In this document: piece by piece, positions 1,419 through 17,689 of the stretch | Layout of the letters: each line of letters opens with the position of its first letter | How positions within the stretch are numbered: the stretch's first letter is position 1 | IMG/VR virus record: IMGVR_UViG_2526164690_000042 | Strand: one strand, 5' to 3' | Length of the DNA: 17,689 nucleotides | Origin: a virus | Taxonomy: Duplodnaviria > Heunggongvirae > Uroviricota > Caudoviricetes | Notes under the pieces: model-generated | Databases searched by the model: none | What the model was told of the DNA's origin: nothing | The model's input: only the letters and a program-made list of their open reading frames with translations | Position numbers and translations under genes: made by a program

Positions 1419-2759
1419 TTAAAAATCAGCCTGACTCGGGATCAGTTTTTGCCAGATAACTGAAACGTATTTTGCCTGATAACGGGCGTCATCAAGTGCA
1501 TTATGGCGCTCACCTTCGAATGGAATAGCCGTTCTGGCATCGAAGTCTATGGCTTTCCCCAGCTCAACGATTGTGCGTACATCGCGATCGTTGTAGTAAC
1601 GCCACGGGCAGGGGATCCCCTGCCGTTCGTATGAACGGCGCAAAATCGTGTTATCGAAGTTGGCTCCATTTCCCCAGACCTGAACAAAAAATTCACCGGA
1701 GTTTTCGTCGATAAATTCCCGCAATTGTAACAGTGCATCATCTAACGGGATTTCATCGGTCATAATGGCAGATTGCGCTTCGCGTGATTGCTTAAGCCAC
1801 CATTTAATGGTGTCCCGATCAATGACTCCGCCAGCAGTTTCCAGATCGATAGTCTTACTAAATTCCGGTCCCATATCTCCGGTTTGCGGATCGAAAAATA
1901 TTGCACCTATTGAGATGATCGGGGCATCAGGATTTTTTCCCATGGTTTCAAGGTCGATCATTAGATGGTCACACGTCCTGCTGGTGGATGTGATTTCGTG
2001 ATGACCGTTCACCTTAATTGAGTGATCTGCCGTCTCGCCAGTTTCATTATCGCTATCGTGATGCTGATTGCCGCCAGTGTTCTCCTTGTGTGGATGTTCA
2101 GCGCCTTCCATTTTCTCCGGATCATCTTCCTGAACTTCAACCTGATACTCTTCATCGAATGTTTCCTGGTATGTTGCGTCGCCCATCACCGCGCCACAAT
2201 CAGGGCAGTTGCCGCCGCCGGTCTGACCGCAGGCGGTGCAGGCTTTTTCCACTTCCTGTTGCGCCACTGGTTCAGGCTGTTTCGTTTCTGGCTCGTTTTG
2301 TAACGCATTTGGGCTGTTTTGTTCCGCTTTTTGGTAGTTCCGTTCCGATTCATGCTGGTTCTGGTTTACAGAATCGCGGGTCTGGATCCCCTTAACCCAT
2401 TTCGGATCATTCGGGTCGCTAATCCCTGCAACAAATTCTCCGCGAGAGGCAGCAAGCAACTTATCGGCGTCAGGCTGGCTGATATTGGCTGCCTGCATAA
2501 TTTTGTTTACTTCGTCAGCGGTAACTTTTACCGGCTCTGGTTGTGCGGTCGTGTCAGATGCACCAGTATTTTGTTGTGAACCTGAGTATGTACTGTTTTT
2601 GCGGGCGAAATATTCTTCTTTCGTGATTTCAGTAGCCCCGGCAGCCAGTGCCTTATCCAGACCAGAAAGTTTGTTTGCGCGACCGTATTTTTCGCCATCC
2701 TTGTCGGTGAAGAGGAAGTAGAACGGCCCCTCACGCTCTACAGATGGTTCGACTTCCAC
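1419..2759 (-). CDS. DEDDh-family (DnaQ-like) 3'-5' exonuclease with N-terminal acidic low-complexity region and Cys4 zinc ribbon
   Basis: The C-terminal ~180 aa carry Exo I (MIDLETMG), Exo II ([13 protein letters not shown]) and Exo III ([13 protein letters not shown]) motifs. The N-terminal ~260 aa are Q/E/N/D-rich and include [16 protein letters not shown]. The start overlaps the stop of the upstream gene by about 22 nt. Confidence 0.8.
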
Positions 2760-3889
2760 TTTGCATTCGGTTTTTCGTTGTCCGGAATTGCCGTTTCCAC
2801 TGCATCAGTTTCTGGTACTGGCGACGAGAGAGTATCAGTTGCGCTCTGATTTGTTCCTTCATCTTCAAACACGCCCTTTGTAGTCAGGTATTCAGTAATG
2901 TATTTGTTCAGTGCCACAGGGTCTTTGTGAATGTCGATCGGACGTTCACGGACAAGGCCAAAAATAGTCTGGCGGTCGTAGCGAAGGGCATCAGGCTGTT
3001 TGCGCATTGATGCCGAGATACGCTTCCAGTCTTCGCGGTCGTTGTCGATAACTTCATTTTTTGCCCAGCGATGGATGCTGCCGTCAATGTTTCCGGCATC
3101 CACATCACCAGGCCAGAGAGCGTAGGCCAGTTCGTCATCCAGTGTTTTCCATGTCTGCTTGTATTCGCGATGAATGGCAGCAATGACCGGGCTGATTTTT
3201 CCTGTTGAATTTTCAGTGTGCTGTTGATTGGTTCTGGCGCGGGCGAGATCAACAACAGACGTGTATTTTCCGGTTTCCTTGCGTTCACCTTCGCGACGTT
3301 TTTTCCAGATGCGCATCTCTGCCTGAATTTCGGGCCATTTGGCACCAGGCTTACATTTATGCTTAACCCACCCGATGGCATGCAGCTTAAGCTCCGGATA
3401 CATGGCGTTAACTTCTGGCATTTTCATCAACGCTTCAACGATATGTCCGTCGAATGTTGCCATGTCTTCCTGCAACAATTCCTGTGCGCTAATAACCATA
3501 TCAACGGTGATGTTTTCACATGTGTCGAACTTAACCATGACAGCGTTCTGTACTTCAGGGGCCAGCTTGTCAAAAGTGACGTTCATCGGATCTGATTCAG
3601 TCTCAACCGGAACAAAGGAAGCAGACTCCTCATCCCAGCGGTTTTCCTGCATATATTCAGCATCCCATGAATCGAGGGCAGGGCGGGGTATGCCAGGTTT
3701 ATCCTCGCAGATAATAAATTTATAAGCGCAGTCCTGAGCAGCCGGATAATGTTCCAGGAATTGCCAGTGAAATTTTGCTCGAGCACGGCGTTCGTCGCCA
3801 GCTTCAATAGCTGTGGCTACAGCCACAGCGCCTTCTTCCCTTGTTGCCAGTTCGTCAGGAATGGCGGCGCAAATAAAGACTTTACTCAT
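2738..3889 (-). CDS. Hypothetical phage early-left protein (383 aa), function unknown
   Basis: Long uninterrupted ORF co-oriented with and translationally coupled to the exonuclease gene. No motif I can confidently assign. It sits where a recombination partner (SSAP) is found in lambdoid phages. Confidence 0.7.
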
Positions 3890-4359: not shown

Positions 4360-4848
4360 TATCGCGCCCTCAACAATGAGTTTTGTGATGCGGTGCCTGG
4401 TGCCTCCAGGTGACGTTAACCAGTTAACAACTAACGCCGGATACAGAGAATCCAACCATAACACTGTTTTTGGTTTTAACTGTTCCGCGTGCGCTTAGCC
4501 GCATTCACCGCATCACAAAATTCACTTTAAAAAGGGCGGCAGAGCAGTCACGGAGTAAAACTGATACCGCCAAACGTCACCAGAAAATTGATAACAGAGG
4601 GCGTTGCAGCGGGGTTGTCACTTAAGCGTATGGTCAACCTGACAACCCGGTGTCCTCAACGGGGGAAGGAATAACCCCGCCATACTTACCGCCGCGCCAT
4701 TTCGCGGATTGCCACAACCAGAAGCGCACGGTCGAAGAAATTTAACGACAAGACTTATATGCAAAGGGATCTCGCCGTGCGCTTTCGTGTTATGCCCTGA
4801 CTTTTCAGGGTAAATTAACCTGTGGAAACCTGTTTTTACTGGCGCTAA

Positions 4849-11077: not shown

Positions 11078-11367
11078 CCTGGCCTGAAGCATTCACAACG
11101 GTAGGAATTGCGATGGCGGTGGCGCTGGTGGTGTATTCGATTTGCCACTGGGGATAAAAACGGTTTGCGGGAAAAGGATAGTTAAGTAGAATTGCTGCGG
11201 GTGCTTGAGGCTATCTGCCTCGGGCATGAACACCAACGGCAGATAGAGAAAAGCCCCAGTTAACATTACGCGTCCTGCAAGACGCTTAACATTAATCTGA
11301 GGCTCAATCCATGCTGAACACATGTAGGTTAGCCTCTTACGTGCCGAAAGGCAAGGAGAAGCAGGCT

Positions 11368-11523
11368 ATGAAGCAGCAAAAGGCGATGTTAATCGCCCTG
11401 ATCGTCATCTGTTTAACCGTCATAGTGACGGCACTGGTAACGAGGAAAGACCTCTGCGAGGTGCGAATCCGAACCGGTCAGACGGAGGTCGCTGTCTTCG
11501 TAGACTACGAATCTGAGAAGTAA
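11368..11523 (+). CDS. hok: Hok/Gef-family type I toxin (51 aa membrane peptide)
   Basis: MKQQKAMLIALIVICLTVIVTALVTRKDLCEVRIRTGQTEVAVFVDYESEK parallels Hok (…[37 protein letters not shown]). AAGGAG Shine-Dalgarno upstream. The track ORF starts in frame at 11311, which may be a mok-like leader. Confidence 0.85.
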   Translation: MKQQKAMLIALIVICLTVIVTALVTRKDLCEVRIRTGQTEVAVFVDYESEK

Positions 11524-14781: not shown

Positions 14782-14857
14782 GGCCCTTTAGCTCAGTGGT
14801 GAGAGCGAGCGACTCATAATCGCCAGGTCGCTGGTTCAAATCCAGCAAGGGCCACCA
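14782..14857 (+). tRNA. tRNA with CAU anticodon; ileX/ileZ-like (tRNA-Ile2, lysidine-type) rather than tRNA-Met
   Basis: Cloverleaf readable by eye: acceptor GGCCCTT/AAGGGCC, D-arm GCTC…GAGC, anticodon loop CTCATAA, T-arm GCTGG-TTCAAAT-CCAGC, 3' ACCA. Overall sequence is close to what I recall of E. coli ileX. Confidence 0.85.
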
Positions 14858-15204: not shown

Positions 15205-15636
15205 ATGTTTAGAATCTTCAAAAAGAAAACCCGCAGAGCGGCAGCGGAAATTAAAAAGTTTGAGAAACGCGATCTGGCACAGGCGGTGATTAACGCTGCA
15301 TACCTGGTGGCCTATGCAGATGGTGAATGCGAGGCATCCGAGAAAGCGAAGATCGAACAGGTCTTACGTAATCAGCCTGCGTTGTCTGCGTTTACCTCGG
15401 AAATTAATGCGATTAGCGCAACTATTATCGGTCAGCTGGATACCAATTTTAAAATTGGTCGTCGTGCCGCGTTACGCGAGATTGAGGATGTGAAACACGA
15501 TACGCGTGAAGCGGAAGATGTGCTGGATGTGGCGGTGGCCATTGCGGAGGCAGACGGCGAAATTGAGCCGGAAGAGCGCAAGGTGCTGGAAGAGATTGCC
15601 GGTGTTCTGGGTCTTCGTCTGGAGAATCACCTGTGA
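15205..15636 (+). CDS. TerB-like (tellurite-resistance TerB family) protein
   Basis: ATG at 15205 with AAAGGA Shine-Dalgarno (the track ORF begins with GTG at 15133). Acidic helical protein with TerB-like features (…DLAQAVINAAYLVAYADGECEASEKAKIEQVL… and …DVLDVAVAIAEADGEIEPEERKVLEEIAGVLGL…). Confidence 0.75.
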   Translation: MFRIFKKKTRRAAAEIKKFEKRDLAQAVINAAYLVAYADGECEASEKAKIEQVLRNQPALSAFTSEINAISATIIGQLDTNFKIGRRAALREIEDVKHDTREAEDVLDVAVAIAEADGEIEPEERKVLEEIAGVLGLRLENHL

Positions 15637-15884
15637 CGGTAAAACTGCGCCTGGCTGTGGCTGCACTCCTGCTGTTTCTGGTGGTGATGGTGGATTTCAC
15701 CAGCAGAATCATGTCGGTGCTGGCGGATGGGGTGCTGGTCTGCGGCATTGTGGTATTGCTGTGGCCGGTGATAAAAAGAACAGCCTGCATAATGCTTGAT
15801 TTTTTTGTTTACTGTTTATTAAAAATACTACTGCATGGTGAATCCCCCTGTGCGGAGGGGCAATCAGCAACCAGGTATATGTGA
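15633..15884 (+). CDS. Small hydrophobic membrane protein coupled to the TerB-like gene
   Basis: GTG start overlaps the TerB-like stop. Two hydrophobic segments (LAVAALLLFLVVMV and GVLVCGIVVLLWPVI). The C-terminal end and exact start are uncertain. Confidence 0.4.
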   Translation: MTVKLRLAVAALLLFLVVMVDFTSRIMSVLADGVLVCGIVVLLWPVIKRTACIMLDFFVYCLLKILLHGESPCAEGQSATRYM

Positions 15885-15966
15885 TAATCGCGGATTCAGG
15901 TGCTGATACTGAATTCACCGGGAGGCACCCGGCACCATGCAAGAAAAAGAATGTGCATGCAAACAT

Positions 15967-15990
15967 GCCCCTCTCCGGAGGGGCTTTTTT
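15967..15990 (+). terminator. Intrinsic terminator (plus strand) ending the TerB-like/membrane unit
   Basis: gcccctc-tccg-gaggggc hairpin followed by tttttt. Confidence 0.6.
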
Positions 15991-15995
15991 ATGGG

Positions 15996-16021
15996 TAAAA
16001 AATGCCCGAATGGGTTCGGGC
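15996..16021 (-). terminator. Candidate minus-strand intrinsic terminator, convergent with the previous one
   Basis: Plus strand aaaaaat-gcccgaa-tggg-ttcgggc. On the minus strand this is a 7-bp hairpin followed by a T-run. Confidence 0.4.
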
Positions 16022-16117
16022 AATAGCATGAGATACTGATATTGTTGTGTTGTTATCGTGTGGATTTTAACCAGGGTTTATCAGGCTGCGCAACTGCGTG
16101 GCCTTTTTTCATTTCTT

Positions 16118-16162
16118 GGGCTGTAGTCCCCGTGTGTCATTCAGGCTTCCGGACTACAGCCC
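16118..16162. repeat. Perfect 12-bp inverted repeat with 21-nt spacer
   Basis: gggctgtagtcc (16118..16129) and ggactacagccc (16151..16162). Not followed by a T-run on either strand, so it is not a typical terminator. It lies between the converging terminators and the second integrase gene. Confidence 0.5.
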
Positions 16163-16205
16163 ACTCCATATCTGATTTAATACACTATCCCGGCCGGGAG
16201 GAATA

Positions 16206-16460
16206 ATGACATTTAAACATTATGATGTTGTCAGGGCGGCGTCGCCGTCAGACCTTGCGGAAAAGCTGACACACAAACTGAAAGAGGGCTGGCAGCCGTT
16301 TGGTAGACCGAAGAAAACAAATAAAATCAGTGTAATACGTGAAATTGCTGAAAAGTTAATCAAATTTAACACCAAGAAAAATCAAGGTATTAGGAAGTTG
16401 CTCATAGCTAGTATACCAAGTCTTTTTGCCAGAAATTTTTCTGGATTGTCTACTTGCTAA
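16206..16460 (+). CDS. DUF1737-like small phage protein, probably with an altered or chimeric C-terminus
   Basis: The N-terminus MTFKHYDVVRAASPSDLAEKLTHKLKEGWQPFG resembles a small conserved late-region protein of lambdoid phages as I recall it. The remaining ~50 aa are Lys-rich, and the stop overlaps the 3' end of the convergent integrase gene. Confidence 0.4.
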   Translation: MTFKHYDVVRAASPSDLAEKLTHKLKEGWQPFGRPKKTNKISVIREIAEKLIKFNTKKNQGIRKLLIASIPSLFARNFSGLSTC

Positions 16461-17469
16461 CCACGAGCGGCAAATCCAGTGTTGGTGTGATTTTTGTTTT
16501 ACGATCGTAAATCAACACCTGATTTTCTGTTTTATGCCCGCTGAAAATTTGTTTGTCGCGACTGCTGCCTTCGTAATCTGAGATCCCCTTGGCTTTTATG
16601 TCGTGAAAATTGCACCCGAACGGAACGCCAACTTTTTGCTCGGCTGCGCGTTTAGCCTGATTCCACCAGTTATTCAGCGTTTTAGCTATGACTTTCCCGC
16701 CTTTGGTTGTATTGATCACATATTCGCATGTACAGGAAGATACATTTCGGGCTAACTGGATCGCTGTACGTAATCGCGGTGACCATTCCTTGATTTGTTT
16801 GGTGCCGGTTTTGTTTTGCTCAATGTAGATCCCTTTATCCATAATATCCTGCCATTTCAACTCAAGCACATCACCGAGTCTTGCCGCACAGAGATAGGAA
16901 ATCTCCATTGCAATGCGTAACTGTGGAATTGCTTCCGCATATATCGCCGCATACTGTTCATCGGTGATGTAAACAGTGCGGGCTTTAAGAGAGAATTTTC
17001 TGACTCCTTTGCATGGGTTATTCTTCACATACCCACGCTCATATCCCCACCCGTATACTCGACTCAGGCTTGCCAGTTCATGATTTGCCTGGGTCTTGCT
17101 CTCAAGCCCTCGTTTATCCATGAAAATTCTTACCTGCTCAGTTTTGACATTATCAGCAAGCACTTTTCCGAATACCATCAGCAACGCCTTCTGATGTTGT
17201 CGATAATCTTTTTGGGTTCGGGGGGCCAGTTCTGTAAATGCAGGGGAGTCCATAAACATGTGCCATAATTTAGCTACGGTCATTATGTTGTGGAGTTTTG
17301 CTTTTTCCAGTTCATAATTTTGCCAGACTTTAGCTACGCTGGTTTTCCGCACTCTTCCTAGCCCTATACTTCTTGTACTTCCTTCGGGTTTCCACACGTA
17401 ACTGTAACCATTCGATCTAACCCGCGGTGGCAGTACATTATCTTTTTTATTTTTTCTTGGTCTTCCCAT
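16450..17469 (-). CDS. int: Second tyrosine integrase (phage integrase family), unrelated in sequence to the first
   Basis: 339-aa ORF with a C-terminal catalytic region (…RLGDVLELKWQDI…, …FHDIKAKGISDY…, …GHKTENQVLIYDRK…) carrying R, H-x-x-(R/K) and Tyr positions. An excisionase-like ORF overlaps its start. Confidence 0.85.
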   Translation of the reverse strand: MGRPRKNKKDNVLPPRVRSNGYSYVWKPEGSTRSIGLGRVRKTSVAKVWQNYELEKAKLHNIMTVAKLWHMFMDSPAFTELAPRTQKDYRQHQKALLMVFGKVLADNVKTEQVRIFMDKRGLESKTQANHELASLSRVYGWGYERGYVKNNPCKGVRKFSLKARTVYITDEQYAAIYAEAIPQLRIAMEISYLCAARLGDVLELKWQDIMDKGIYIEQNKTGTKQIKEWSPRLRTAIQLARNVSSCTCEYVINTTKGGKVIAKTLNNWWNQAKRAAEQKVGVPFGCNFHDIKAKGISDYEGSSRDKQIFSGHKTENQVLIYDRKTKITPTLDLPLVVSK

Positions 17470-17689
17470 TGTTCAGCGCCTCAAAATCGGGTTCAGCAGA
17501 AACCAGTTCAGATGTTTTTGGCATCGTTGTCAGACCGTGTGGAATATCCCTGCGGAGAACTATGGGTTCGTTTTTAGGGCCGATTACAAATGGGATGCCG
17601 TGCAGTCTTAACTGGTGTTGCTGTTTTGTGTATCGCTCGTATTTCGTGATCTCTTTAATCTCTGCTGGAGATAGAGTTAATTCGTACAT
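17447..17689 (-). CDS. xis: Excisionase-like protein of the second element
   Basis: 80-aa ORF overlapping the start of the second integrase. It begins MYELTLSP…, similar to lambda Xis MYLTLQEW…. The start codon is the last three bases of the window. Confidence 0.6.
   Translation of the reverse strand: MYELTLSPAEIKEITKYERYTKQQHQLRLHGIPFVIGPKNEPIVLRRDIPHGLTTMPKTSELVSAEPDFEALNNGKTKKK

Follow-up and report, generated by a model that had tools for sequence, protein, structure and literature searches.

The DNA considered here is the IMG/VR record IMGVR_UViG_2526164690_000042, a stretch of 17,689 nucleotides from a virus of the class Caudoviricetes (in the following, the window). The subject of this analysis is its right-hand end, where the genes of a first prophage, prophage A, are followed by a second integrase gene (int2) that belongs to another element, prophage B. 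The window is colinear with a chromosomal region of the Shiga-toxigenic Escherichia coli (STEC) O103 strain RM8385 (L001 5067-22692; 99.9-100% identity, with the exception of a 64-bp indel and a few 1-nt homopolymer differences). As the RM8385 equivalent forms the left part of a compound prophage of about 60 kb between potC and potB, the window can be regarded as the left part of a compound prophage at potC-potB of an STEC of the O103/O111:H11 group. Prophage B, which normally resides in serT, has very probably been inserted by its own integrase into the nanS-p gene of the resident prophage A, and the window would hold the resulting left junction, termed attL*. The following features surround it:

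15807..15996, + strand: small RNA (sRNA) gene of the STnc100 family (Rfam RF02076, 147.8 bits; gathering score 47)
15997..16058, - strand: AgvB anti-GcvB sRNA gene (Rfam RF02702, 96.5 bits; gathering score 56)
16083..16163, + strand: nanS-p leader region with a terminator-like hairpin (16083-16104, +) and a 13-nt perfect inverted repeat
16206..16306, + strand: 5′ remnant of nanS-p (DUF1737 plus SASA sialate O-acetylesterase) of prophage A, 33 codons and 2 nt
16206..16460, + strand: chimeric junction open reading frame (ORF) of 84 amino acids, consisting of the NanS-p N-terminus (33 amino acids) and 51 amino acids read through over the P′ arm into the 3′ end of the integrase gene
16300..16306: putative overlap (strand-exchange) segment of the secondary attachment (att) site, TTGGTAG here against TTTCAAG at serT
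16307..16449: P′ arm of the att site of prophage B, left junction attL*
16450..17469, - strand: int2, encoding a lambda-family tyrosine integrase of 339 amino acids (CP-933M / ST64B type, primary site serT)
17447..17689, - strand: DUF4224 gene of 80 amino acids, probable excisionase (recombination directionality factor) of prophage B, overlapping the int2 start by 23 nt

According to the first-pass annotation of the window, made from the letters alone, the ORF at 16206..16460 starts like a conserved late-region protein and then switches to a Lys-rich tail that ends in the 3′ end of the integrase gene. This description proved accurate, as the ORF consists of the start of nanS-p and a read-through over the P′ arm. 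Only residues 3-38 match DUF1737 (profile positions 1-36 of 53; Pfam, 4e-13), unrelated Lys-rich sequence follows, and the stop codon lies 11 nt inside the integrase 3′ end. The remnant is identical to the start of a 616-amino-acid gene in the potC-potB prophage of E. coli O103:H2 strain 12009 (L004 20568-22418), which served as the full-length comparator, up to ...GCCGTTTGGTAG. The 33 codons shared by the window ORF and intact nanS-p read MTFKHYDVVRAASPSDLAEKLTHKLKEGWQPFG, and the translations part at residue 34, where the 84-amino-acid protein has R instead of S. The uninterrupted gene encodes a NanS-p-type prophage sialate O-acetylesterase with an N-terminal DUF1737; the biology of these enzymes has been reviewed (PMC8065619). 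The sequence upstream of the break is matched at a coverage of at least 80% in 605 genomes, and most of the top matches have a full-length gene there that is annotated as 'SASA family carbohydrate esterase'. An 84-amino-acid ORF that is full length and conserved as it stands, which the first-pass annotation had named as an argument against a junction, is not what related prophages carry, as the gene is full length there at 616 amino acids. What is left in the window is a pseudogene remnant with a partial DUF1737 and no esterase part, and RefSeq likewise flags it as a pseudogene without its C-terminus. The nanS-p gene of prophage A would thereby be inactivated, and the 84-amino-acid ORF is probably a non-functional by-product of the junction.

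The sequence to the right of the break has a different home. From 16305 onward the window matches many genomes in another context: in E. coli O111:H11 strain 8D the same arm, the integrase (WP_001299351.1) and the DUF4224 protein (WP_000273151.1) adjoin yccA and abut a 3′ fragment of serT, a tRNA-Ser gene. The window from 16305 to 17689, comprising int2, the DUF4224 gene and the arm, shows no mismatches to this serT copy. The same serT/yccA site was seen in L002, in RM8385 and in further top partial matches that start at the arm, and at the opposite end of the 8D serT prophage an intact serT lies next to hyaA. Comparison of the two ends indicates that about 65 bp from the 3′ half of serT are also present in the serT-type phage; this copy ends ...GGTTTTCAAGACCG and is followed by the P′ arm AAGAAAAAC.... 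In O103:H2 12009 two serT-type prophages lie in tandem, and the junction between them is exactly the attP that was deduced from these two ends (L009 13360-13660, with the array at about 2.3 Mb of that record). The P′ arm of the window is identical to the arm beside int at serT (L002 from 8001) and to the 12009 attP, barring two 1-nt differences in A-runs. Within it, TATACCAAG at 16412-16420 is a candidate for an arm-type integrase site, and 16368-16376 holds a degenerate copy. Three to four copies of TATACCAAG lie in the P arm, and the whole window has only one perfect copy. The presence of this motif on both att arms further supports 16307-16449 as a real att arm. In the P arm of the 12009 attP the candidate site occurs three to four times in the form TATACCAA(T/G).

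When intact nanS-p, the window and the serT attL are aligned with one another, the breakpoint can be placed at base resolution. Across the break (marked by a slash) intact nanS-p reads ...GGCAGCCGTTTGGTAG/TCCGGTGGCC, the window ...GGCAGCCGTTTGGTAG/ACCGAAGAAAAC and the serT attL ...GTCGCCGGTTTTCAAG/ACCGAAGAAAAAC; serT itself goes on ...CAAG/ACCGGTGCC. The last base found only in nanS-p is T16304 and the first found only in the phage is A16307, with the AG at 16305-16306 being common to both. An attachment junction had been expected at roughly 16300..16450, and the break at 16304-16307 indeed falls at the left edge of this range. It matches, within 0-2 bp, the point at which phage and tRNA sequence diverge in the canonical serT attL. 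The 7-nt anticodon loop of serT, TTTCAAG, lies between the two halves of the inverted stem CCGGT/ACCGG. A 7-nt loop between inverted stems is the classic overlap region between the two core-type sites of tRNA-targeting tyrosine integrases, and the position of the breakpoint, the three-way alignment and the serT sequence point to the anticodon loop as the overlap region of this integrase as well. The window holds the target version of the loop-equivalent segment (TTGGTAG, 16300-16306) and phage sequence from the next base on. Such a junction would be expected of one daughter of a heteroduplex recombinant if strands are exchanged at the loop edges. The target itself comprises codons 31-36 of nanS-p (GCCG TTTGGTAG TCCGGTG, against GCCGG TTTTCAAG ACCGGTG in serT), and the insertion point predicted by the model is GTTTGGTAG/TCCGG. 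Target and serT core agree at 15 of 23 positions (12/16), with GTTT, AG and CCGGTG being kept.

Among 5426 complete E. coli genomes the junction was found in exactly 13, all of them with the same flanks and including strains labelled O103 and O111:H11. The backbone of prophage B is much more common, being covered to at least 80% in 437 of these genomes. This pattern fits one insertion event in one lineage. The idea that the junction is an assembly chimera, joining two similar prophages, can draw on the highly repetitive nature of the prophages of enterohaemorrhagic E. coli (EHEC) and on the 1-nt homopolymer indels by which the window differs from every complete genome, but with the same junction being present in 13 independently finished genomes from several laboratories it is hardly credible. 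A comparison with related genomes without the second element, as recommended by the first-pass annotation, also gave the result expected of an insertion, with intact nanS-p at the same locus in both comparators. O111:H11 8D lacks the junction and has a single prophage with intact nanS-p at potC-potB. Sequence identity to the compound element is 99.4% between the tRNAs and the breakpoint, and 99.97% over potB and the effector cargo on the right, which includes NleG and EspW. O103:H2 12009, with one potC-potB prophage and an intact nanS-p, is the second empty-site comparator. Three marks of a secondary integration site are found here together: a breakpoint at the boundary of att core and arm, a target that is uninterrupted in relatives, and a distinct primary site. 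The nested option of the first-pass annotation, a second element integrated into the first prophage, is accordingly the one that the truncated nanS-p, the att-boundary break and the serT-identical integrase support.

It is quite improbable that nanS-p is a regular, selected target, as for satellites embedded in helper prophages, and that the nesting is a functional regulatory design. Integrase clades which repeatedly target prophage late genes do exist (PMC10111431), and nanS-p is located at the start of the late operon. Yet the integrase is identical to the serT-targeting copy, 13 genomes with identical flanks are consistent with one event, prophage B is a full-size lambdoid phage and no satellite, and the second junction needed for excision (attR*) is absent. 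Independent nanS-p insertions of this integrase type with both junctions were not found in other lineages or alleles. Occupancy of the primary site offers another perspective on the target. RM8385, the one junction-bearing genome in which serT occupancy was examined in full, has a complete prophage at yccA/serT with Int and DUF4224 proteins identical to those of B and different immunity genes, and the same serT attR is present in at least three other junction-bearing genomes. For Stx phages, the use of secondary sites has been reported when the preferred site is occupied (PMC8065619). It appears plausible, though no more than that, that serT occupancy may have favoured the use of a secondary site.

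The right-hand part of the compound element deviates from a simple insertion. From the att core to the lysozyme region prophage B is colinear over 22.9 kb with the B-type prophage of 12009 (99.0% identity), and this stretch comprises early genes, Q, tRNAs, its own full nanS-p, holin and lysozyme. In the B-type phage of 12009, lambda-like head genes come next. In the compound element their place is taken by HNH, TerS, TerL and HK97-like capsid genes, which are of the type of prophage A at potC-potB (as in 12009), and the element ends with the cargo of A abutting potB. The first-pass annotation had stated that the first prophage has no lysis, terminase or structural genes in the window. This holds for the window itself and does not hold in the sense of a simple loss, as one late region follows B 23 kb downstream. 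Its other option, two prophages in tandem at one chromosomal att site with the first one decayed and its late genes lost, has very little probability. True arrays of serT-type prophages exist, for example the one in O103:H2 12009 with a regenerated attP in between, and the first element in the window does lack late genes. Against this, the alignment of nanS-p, window and serT attL contradicts a tandem: the junction contains neither serT nor attP P-arm sequence, and to its left stands nanS-p coding sequence that breaks off at codon 34. Moreover, the two integrases differ in their primary site (potB/potC and serT), and the right end of the compound element belongs to A.

Identity profiles against three comparators reveal the late region as a mosaic, which is 99.1% identical to the serT prophage of RM8385 (L006) and about 96% identical to A-type comparators. 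The late region (positions 45854-59676 of the compound element, L003) is thus closer to the serT prophage of the same genome than to the potC prophages of other strains, and this sequence pattern suggests gene conversion or exchange between co-resident prophages. As a separate observation, RM8385 has lost 9 kb, so that its tape-measure gene is joined to the effector cargo and the genes for tail tip and fibres are gone (L003 28718-32176 compared with L013). This deletion appears to be private to RM8385, as about 9 kb more are retained between junction and cargo in at least one other junction-bearing genome. The idea that the compound prophage is tail-defective in general was dropped, as most junction-bearing genomes have no truncated tape-measure gene.

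The integrase that would have carried out the insertion matches Pfam Phage_integrase (PF00589, 4.4e-08, above the cutoff), so that a catalytic domain is present. Over residues 1-319 it could be aligned to the lambda Int structures 1z1b and 5j0n (E 5.6e-20). The catalytic residues R197, K220, H289, H312 and Y321 are all present, and the R-K-H-R-H-Y set is incomplete only in its second Arg (R311 of lambda Int), which is replaced by Lys at about residue 292 (motif FHDIK). The same Lys is found in the integrases of ST64B, ZF40 and Evi, which makes it a clade trait and not a lesion, and it appears to be compatible with Int2 activity; this type of substitution has also been reported in other integrases (PMC12884075). 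The first integrase of the window retains Arg at this position (FHEQR). The closest homologues of Int2 in isolated phages are those of Evi (97%), ST64B (50%) and ZF40 (45%), and the assignment to the CP-933M / ST64B type follows a note within the ST64B record. The N-terminus aligns with residues 1-60 of lambda Int, and Pfam Arm-DNA-bind_1 gave no match.

The neighbouring DUF4224 gene encodes a small basic protein with a Lys-rich C-terminus and, lying directly upstream of int2 and overlapping it, has the position of an excisionase gene. The first-pass annotation had spoken of a second, different integrase with its own Xis-like gene; the integrase is confirmed by its length of 339 amino acids, by Pfam and by the lambda Int structures, and the Xis-like character is borne out by PHROG label and position and not by profile or fold searches. 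The protein matches Pfam DUF4224 (8.9e-09) and PHROG 1266 'excisionase' (1.9e-23) as well as PHROG 8896 and 4764 (both labelled excisionase), and the phage ZF40 gene at the equivalent position is annotated as excisionase. There was no match to Pfam Exc, and profile comparison by hhalign gave a probability of <1% with both lambda Xis and the first Xis of the window. A sequence search of the PDB returned no match, and the homologue search recovered close relatives only (63-94% identity). Two AF2 runs gave low to moderate confidence, and one model (mean pLDDT 66, with 84-88 at residues 10-45) has a strand-helix-helix-strand-strand order. Foldseek found no significant match to this model in the PDB, the best being the BldC and BirA winged-helix domains with E about 1. 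By its label and position the DUF4224 gene is a probable excisionase gene of prophage B, and an Xis-like fold or homology was not confirmed.

Taking these observations together, a course of events in two steps can be proposed. In a first step the integrase of B, which would normally recombine attP with the anticodon stem-loop of serT beside yccA, would have used the partly similar codons 31-36 of nanS-p, with the exchange taking place at the 3′ edge of the loop-equivalent 7 bp. The position of this exchange is seen in the alignment, and the mechanism is suggested by the position. In a second step, homologous recombination between the nanS-p/holin/lysozyme/late region of B and that of A or of other co-resident prophages would have deleted the right end of B, and attR* and the 3′ part of the nanS-p of A would have been lost with it. 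As one late region serves both elements, such a later homologous recombination probably removed the reciprocal junction. The outcome would be the order A-left, nanS′, B (int, early genes, Q and lysis genes), a single late region, the effector cargo of A and potB. With only one of its two junctions kept, B would not be able to excise alone; the compound element might do so through Int1/Xis1.

In this arrangement Q and the late promoter PR′ of A would now be located about 23 kb from the late genes, which would sit directly behind the Q of B. That A and B have thereby become one regulatory unit with two immunity switches, so that the arrangement would be more than a fossil, is improbable. On this reading Q-modified late transcription from PR′ of A would run through nanS′ into B, antisense to int2 and xis2, and then in sense along the rightward operon of B to the shared late genes. 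Jointly with this proposal, the junction could be read as a natural single-base map of strand exchange, at the 3′ edge of the serT anticodon loop, by the integrase clade with Lys in place of the second catalytic Arg; we consider this combination just as improbable.

Several points weigh against an insertion of B by its own integrase. The likeness of the target to the serT core was not found to exceed chance, with 12 equally good sites being present in a 52.6-kb prophage, so that sequence alone does not explain the choice of the target, and the case for the integrase has to be built on the position of the break and not on similarity. The reciprocal junction attR*, which would join the P arm of the serT attR, by way of a serT-like segment, to the 3′ part of nanS-p and was predicted as ...GGTTTTCAAG/TCCGGTGGCC... 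or ...TTTGGTAG/TCCGG... preceded by the P arm, was found in 0 of the 5426 genomes; the partner att site to the right, which the first-pass annotation had proposed to look for, did hence not turn up. The insertion is read from one junction only, the deletion step was added post hoc, and the second crossover, by which the deletion would have occurred, could not be placed in the mosaic late region.

Some of these points would equally fit an origin of the junction without any integrase, by illegitimate or microhomology recombination or by a replication error that met the edge of the att arm by coincidence. Only 2 bp (AG) are common at the breakpoint, the likeness of target and core is no better than chance, and the reciprocal product is absent. 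However, the break lies within 0-2 bp of the phage/tRNA divergence in the canonical attL, at the edge of the anticodon loop, and a random break in a phage genome of 40-60 kb would fall in such a window with a probability of about 1e-4. In addition, a complete P′ arm with a candidate arm-type site is kept beside an intact int. An integrase-independent origin of the junction therefore appears unlikely, and insertion of B into nanS-p by Int2 is the explanation which we prefer.

The region to the left of the junction contains features that had been taken as boundary marks. According to the first-pass annotation, converging terminators (15967..16021) and a perfect 12-bp inverted repeat (16118..16162) mark the boundary. 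The terminators turned out to be the ends of the STnc100-like gene (hairpin 15967-15984, +, with T-run) and of the AgvB gene (hairpin 16022-16003, -, with T-run). The inverted repeat does exist, measures 13 nt (arms 16117-16129 and 16151-16163) and is no boundary mark either. Terminator pair and repeat are base for base the same in the uninterrupted prophages of O103:H2 12009 (L004) and O111:H11 8D (L013), and because of this they do not mark a boundary; they can be assigned to the sRNA / nanS-p leader region of prophage A and are uninformative on the insertion. A terminator scan found five terminator-like hairpins in this 1 kb, compared with 1.2 +/- 1.0 in shuffled sequences. As read from the sequence, the AgvB RNA contains CACAACA, the target of the GcvB seed. 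Convergent sRNAs between a moron coding sequence and a conserved downstream ORF, downstream of PR′, have been described by Tree et al. 2014 (PMC4104026), and this published layout accounts for the converging terminators. The order is the same here (moron coding sequence, convergent STnc100-like and AgvB genes, nanS-p) with no notable difference, the present copy being located 150-400 bp upstream of the insertion point. Compared with RM8385, the 5′ part of the STnc100-like gene (15811-15882) shows a cluster of five substitutions.

The remainder of the window is occupied by prophage A in the following order:

1: int1 (lambda-type arm-binding domain) and xis1 (Exc-family excisionase)
2: exo, dicB and DicF
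3: RacR-type repressor and replication genes
4: hok/sok, RusA and Q
5: two tRNAs, TerB-family gene and DUF3927 gene, followed by the junction region
15205..15884, + strand: cargo ('moron') genes of prophage A, 3′ of Q and the two tRNAs (TerB-family, DUF3927)

The cargo proteins match Pfam TerB (7.3e-16) and DUF3927 (1e-15), and RefSeq annotates the same genes at L001 20205-20800. The DUF3927 ORF is longer in the window because, compared with L001, one base is missing from the A-run at 15778. In total, window and L001 differ at 17 positions (8 indels and 9 substitutions), and several of the indels are located in homopolymer runs (2770, 15778, 16317 and 16322), so that sequencing errors may account for some of them. 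In prophage A, a 1-nt deletion in the T-run at 2770 relative to 12009 and RM8385 divides the exonuclease gene (1419-3889, -) into two ORFs, and the exonuclease region of RM8385 has a 64-bp deletion instead (window 2389-2452). DicF antisense sRNA (4534-4585, -) and sok antitoxin RNA (11199-11373, +), the latter with a hok/gef ORF close by, both exceed their Rfam gathering scores. The tRNA at 14782-14857 is called tRNA-Met (CAT) by ARAGORN and tRNA-Ile by RefSeq; presumably it is of the lysidine-modified ileX/ileZ type that is typical of Q-proximal tRNA clusters in Stx-like phages. No direct repeat of at least 12 bp that would mark the int1 att sites was found at potC and potB. Both yccA and potC are known STEC phage insertion loci (PMC8065619), and a literature search for papers on potC and serT prophages found none.

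The compound structure explains a confusing annotation of EHEC prophages, namely the presence of an orphan DUF1737 pseudogene and of two int-xis pairs with a single late region. It would provide a base-resolution record of how co-resident lambdoid prophages fuse into compound elements, by off-target integration and subsequent homologous deletion, and such fusions would be one of the ways in which the prophage pools of EHEC become reshuffled and 'grounded'. The junction also predicts the position of strand exchange for integrases of the CP-933M / ST64B type. Off-target insertion and homologous deletion among co-resident lambdoid prophages are well known, so that it is the instance that is new and not the mechanism.

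Among known systems, secondary-site integration by lambda and Stx phages is similar in that a lambda-family integrase recombines attP with a non-canonical, partly core-like site, rarely and with disruption of the target gene, and its use with an occupied or missing primary site has been described (PMC8065619). Here, in contrast, the target is a gene of another prophage, only one junction survives, and the enzyme, of the CP-933M / ST64B type, has serT for its primary site. With tandem or compound EHEC prophages such as the serT array of O103:H2 12009 the present element shares the head-to-tail order, the possession of an int, an immunity region and a Q by each member, and extensive homology with later recombination. 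The separator in 12009 is a regenerated attP, whereas it is a hybrid of nanS-p and P′ arm here, combined with a single shared late region. Helper-embedded satellites of the phage-inducible chromosomal island (PICI) type are likewise nested in a late gene of a resident prophage by means of a tyrosine integrase (PMC10111431). Those satellites are, however, only about 11 kb in size, have dedicated late-gene-targeting integrases and intact junctions on both sides, and can excise. Prophage B does not belong to them, as it has a full set of early, replication, Q and lysis genes and a serT-type integrase and lacks attR*; it rather appears as a full lambdoid prophage which entered an off-target site and is now fixed in place.

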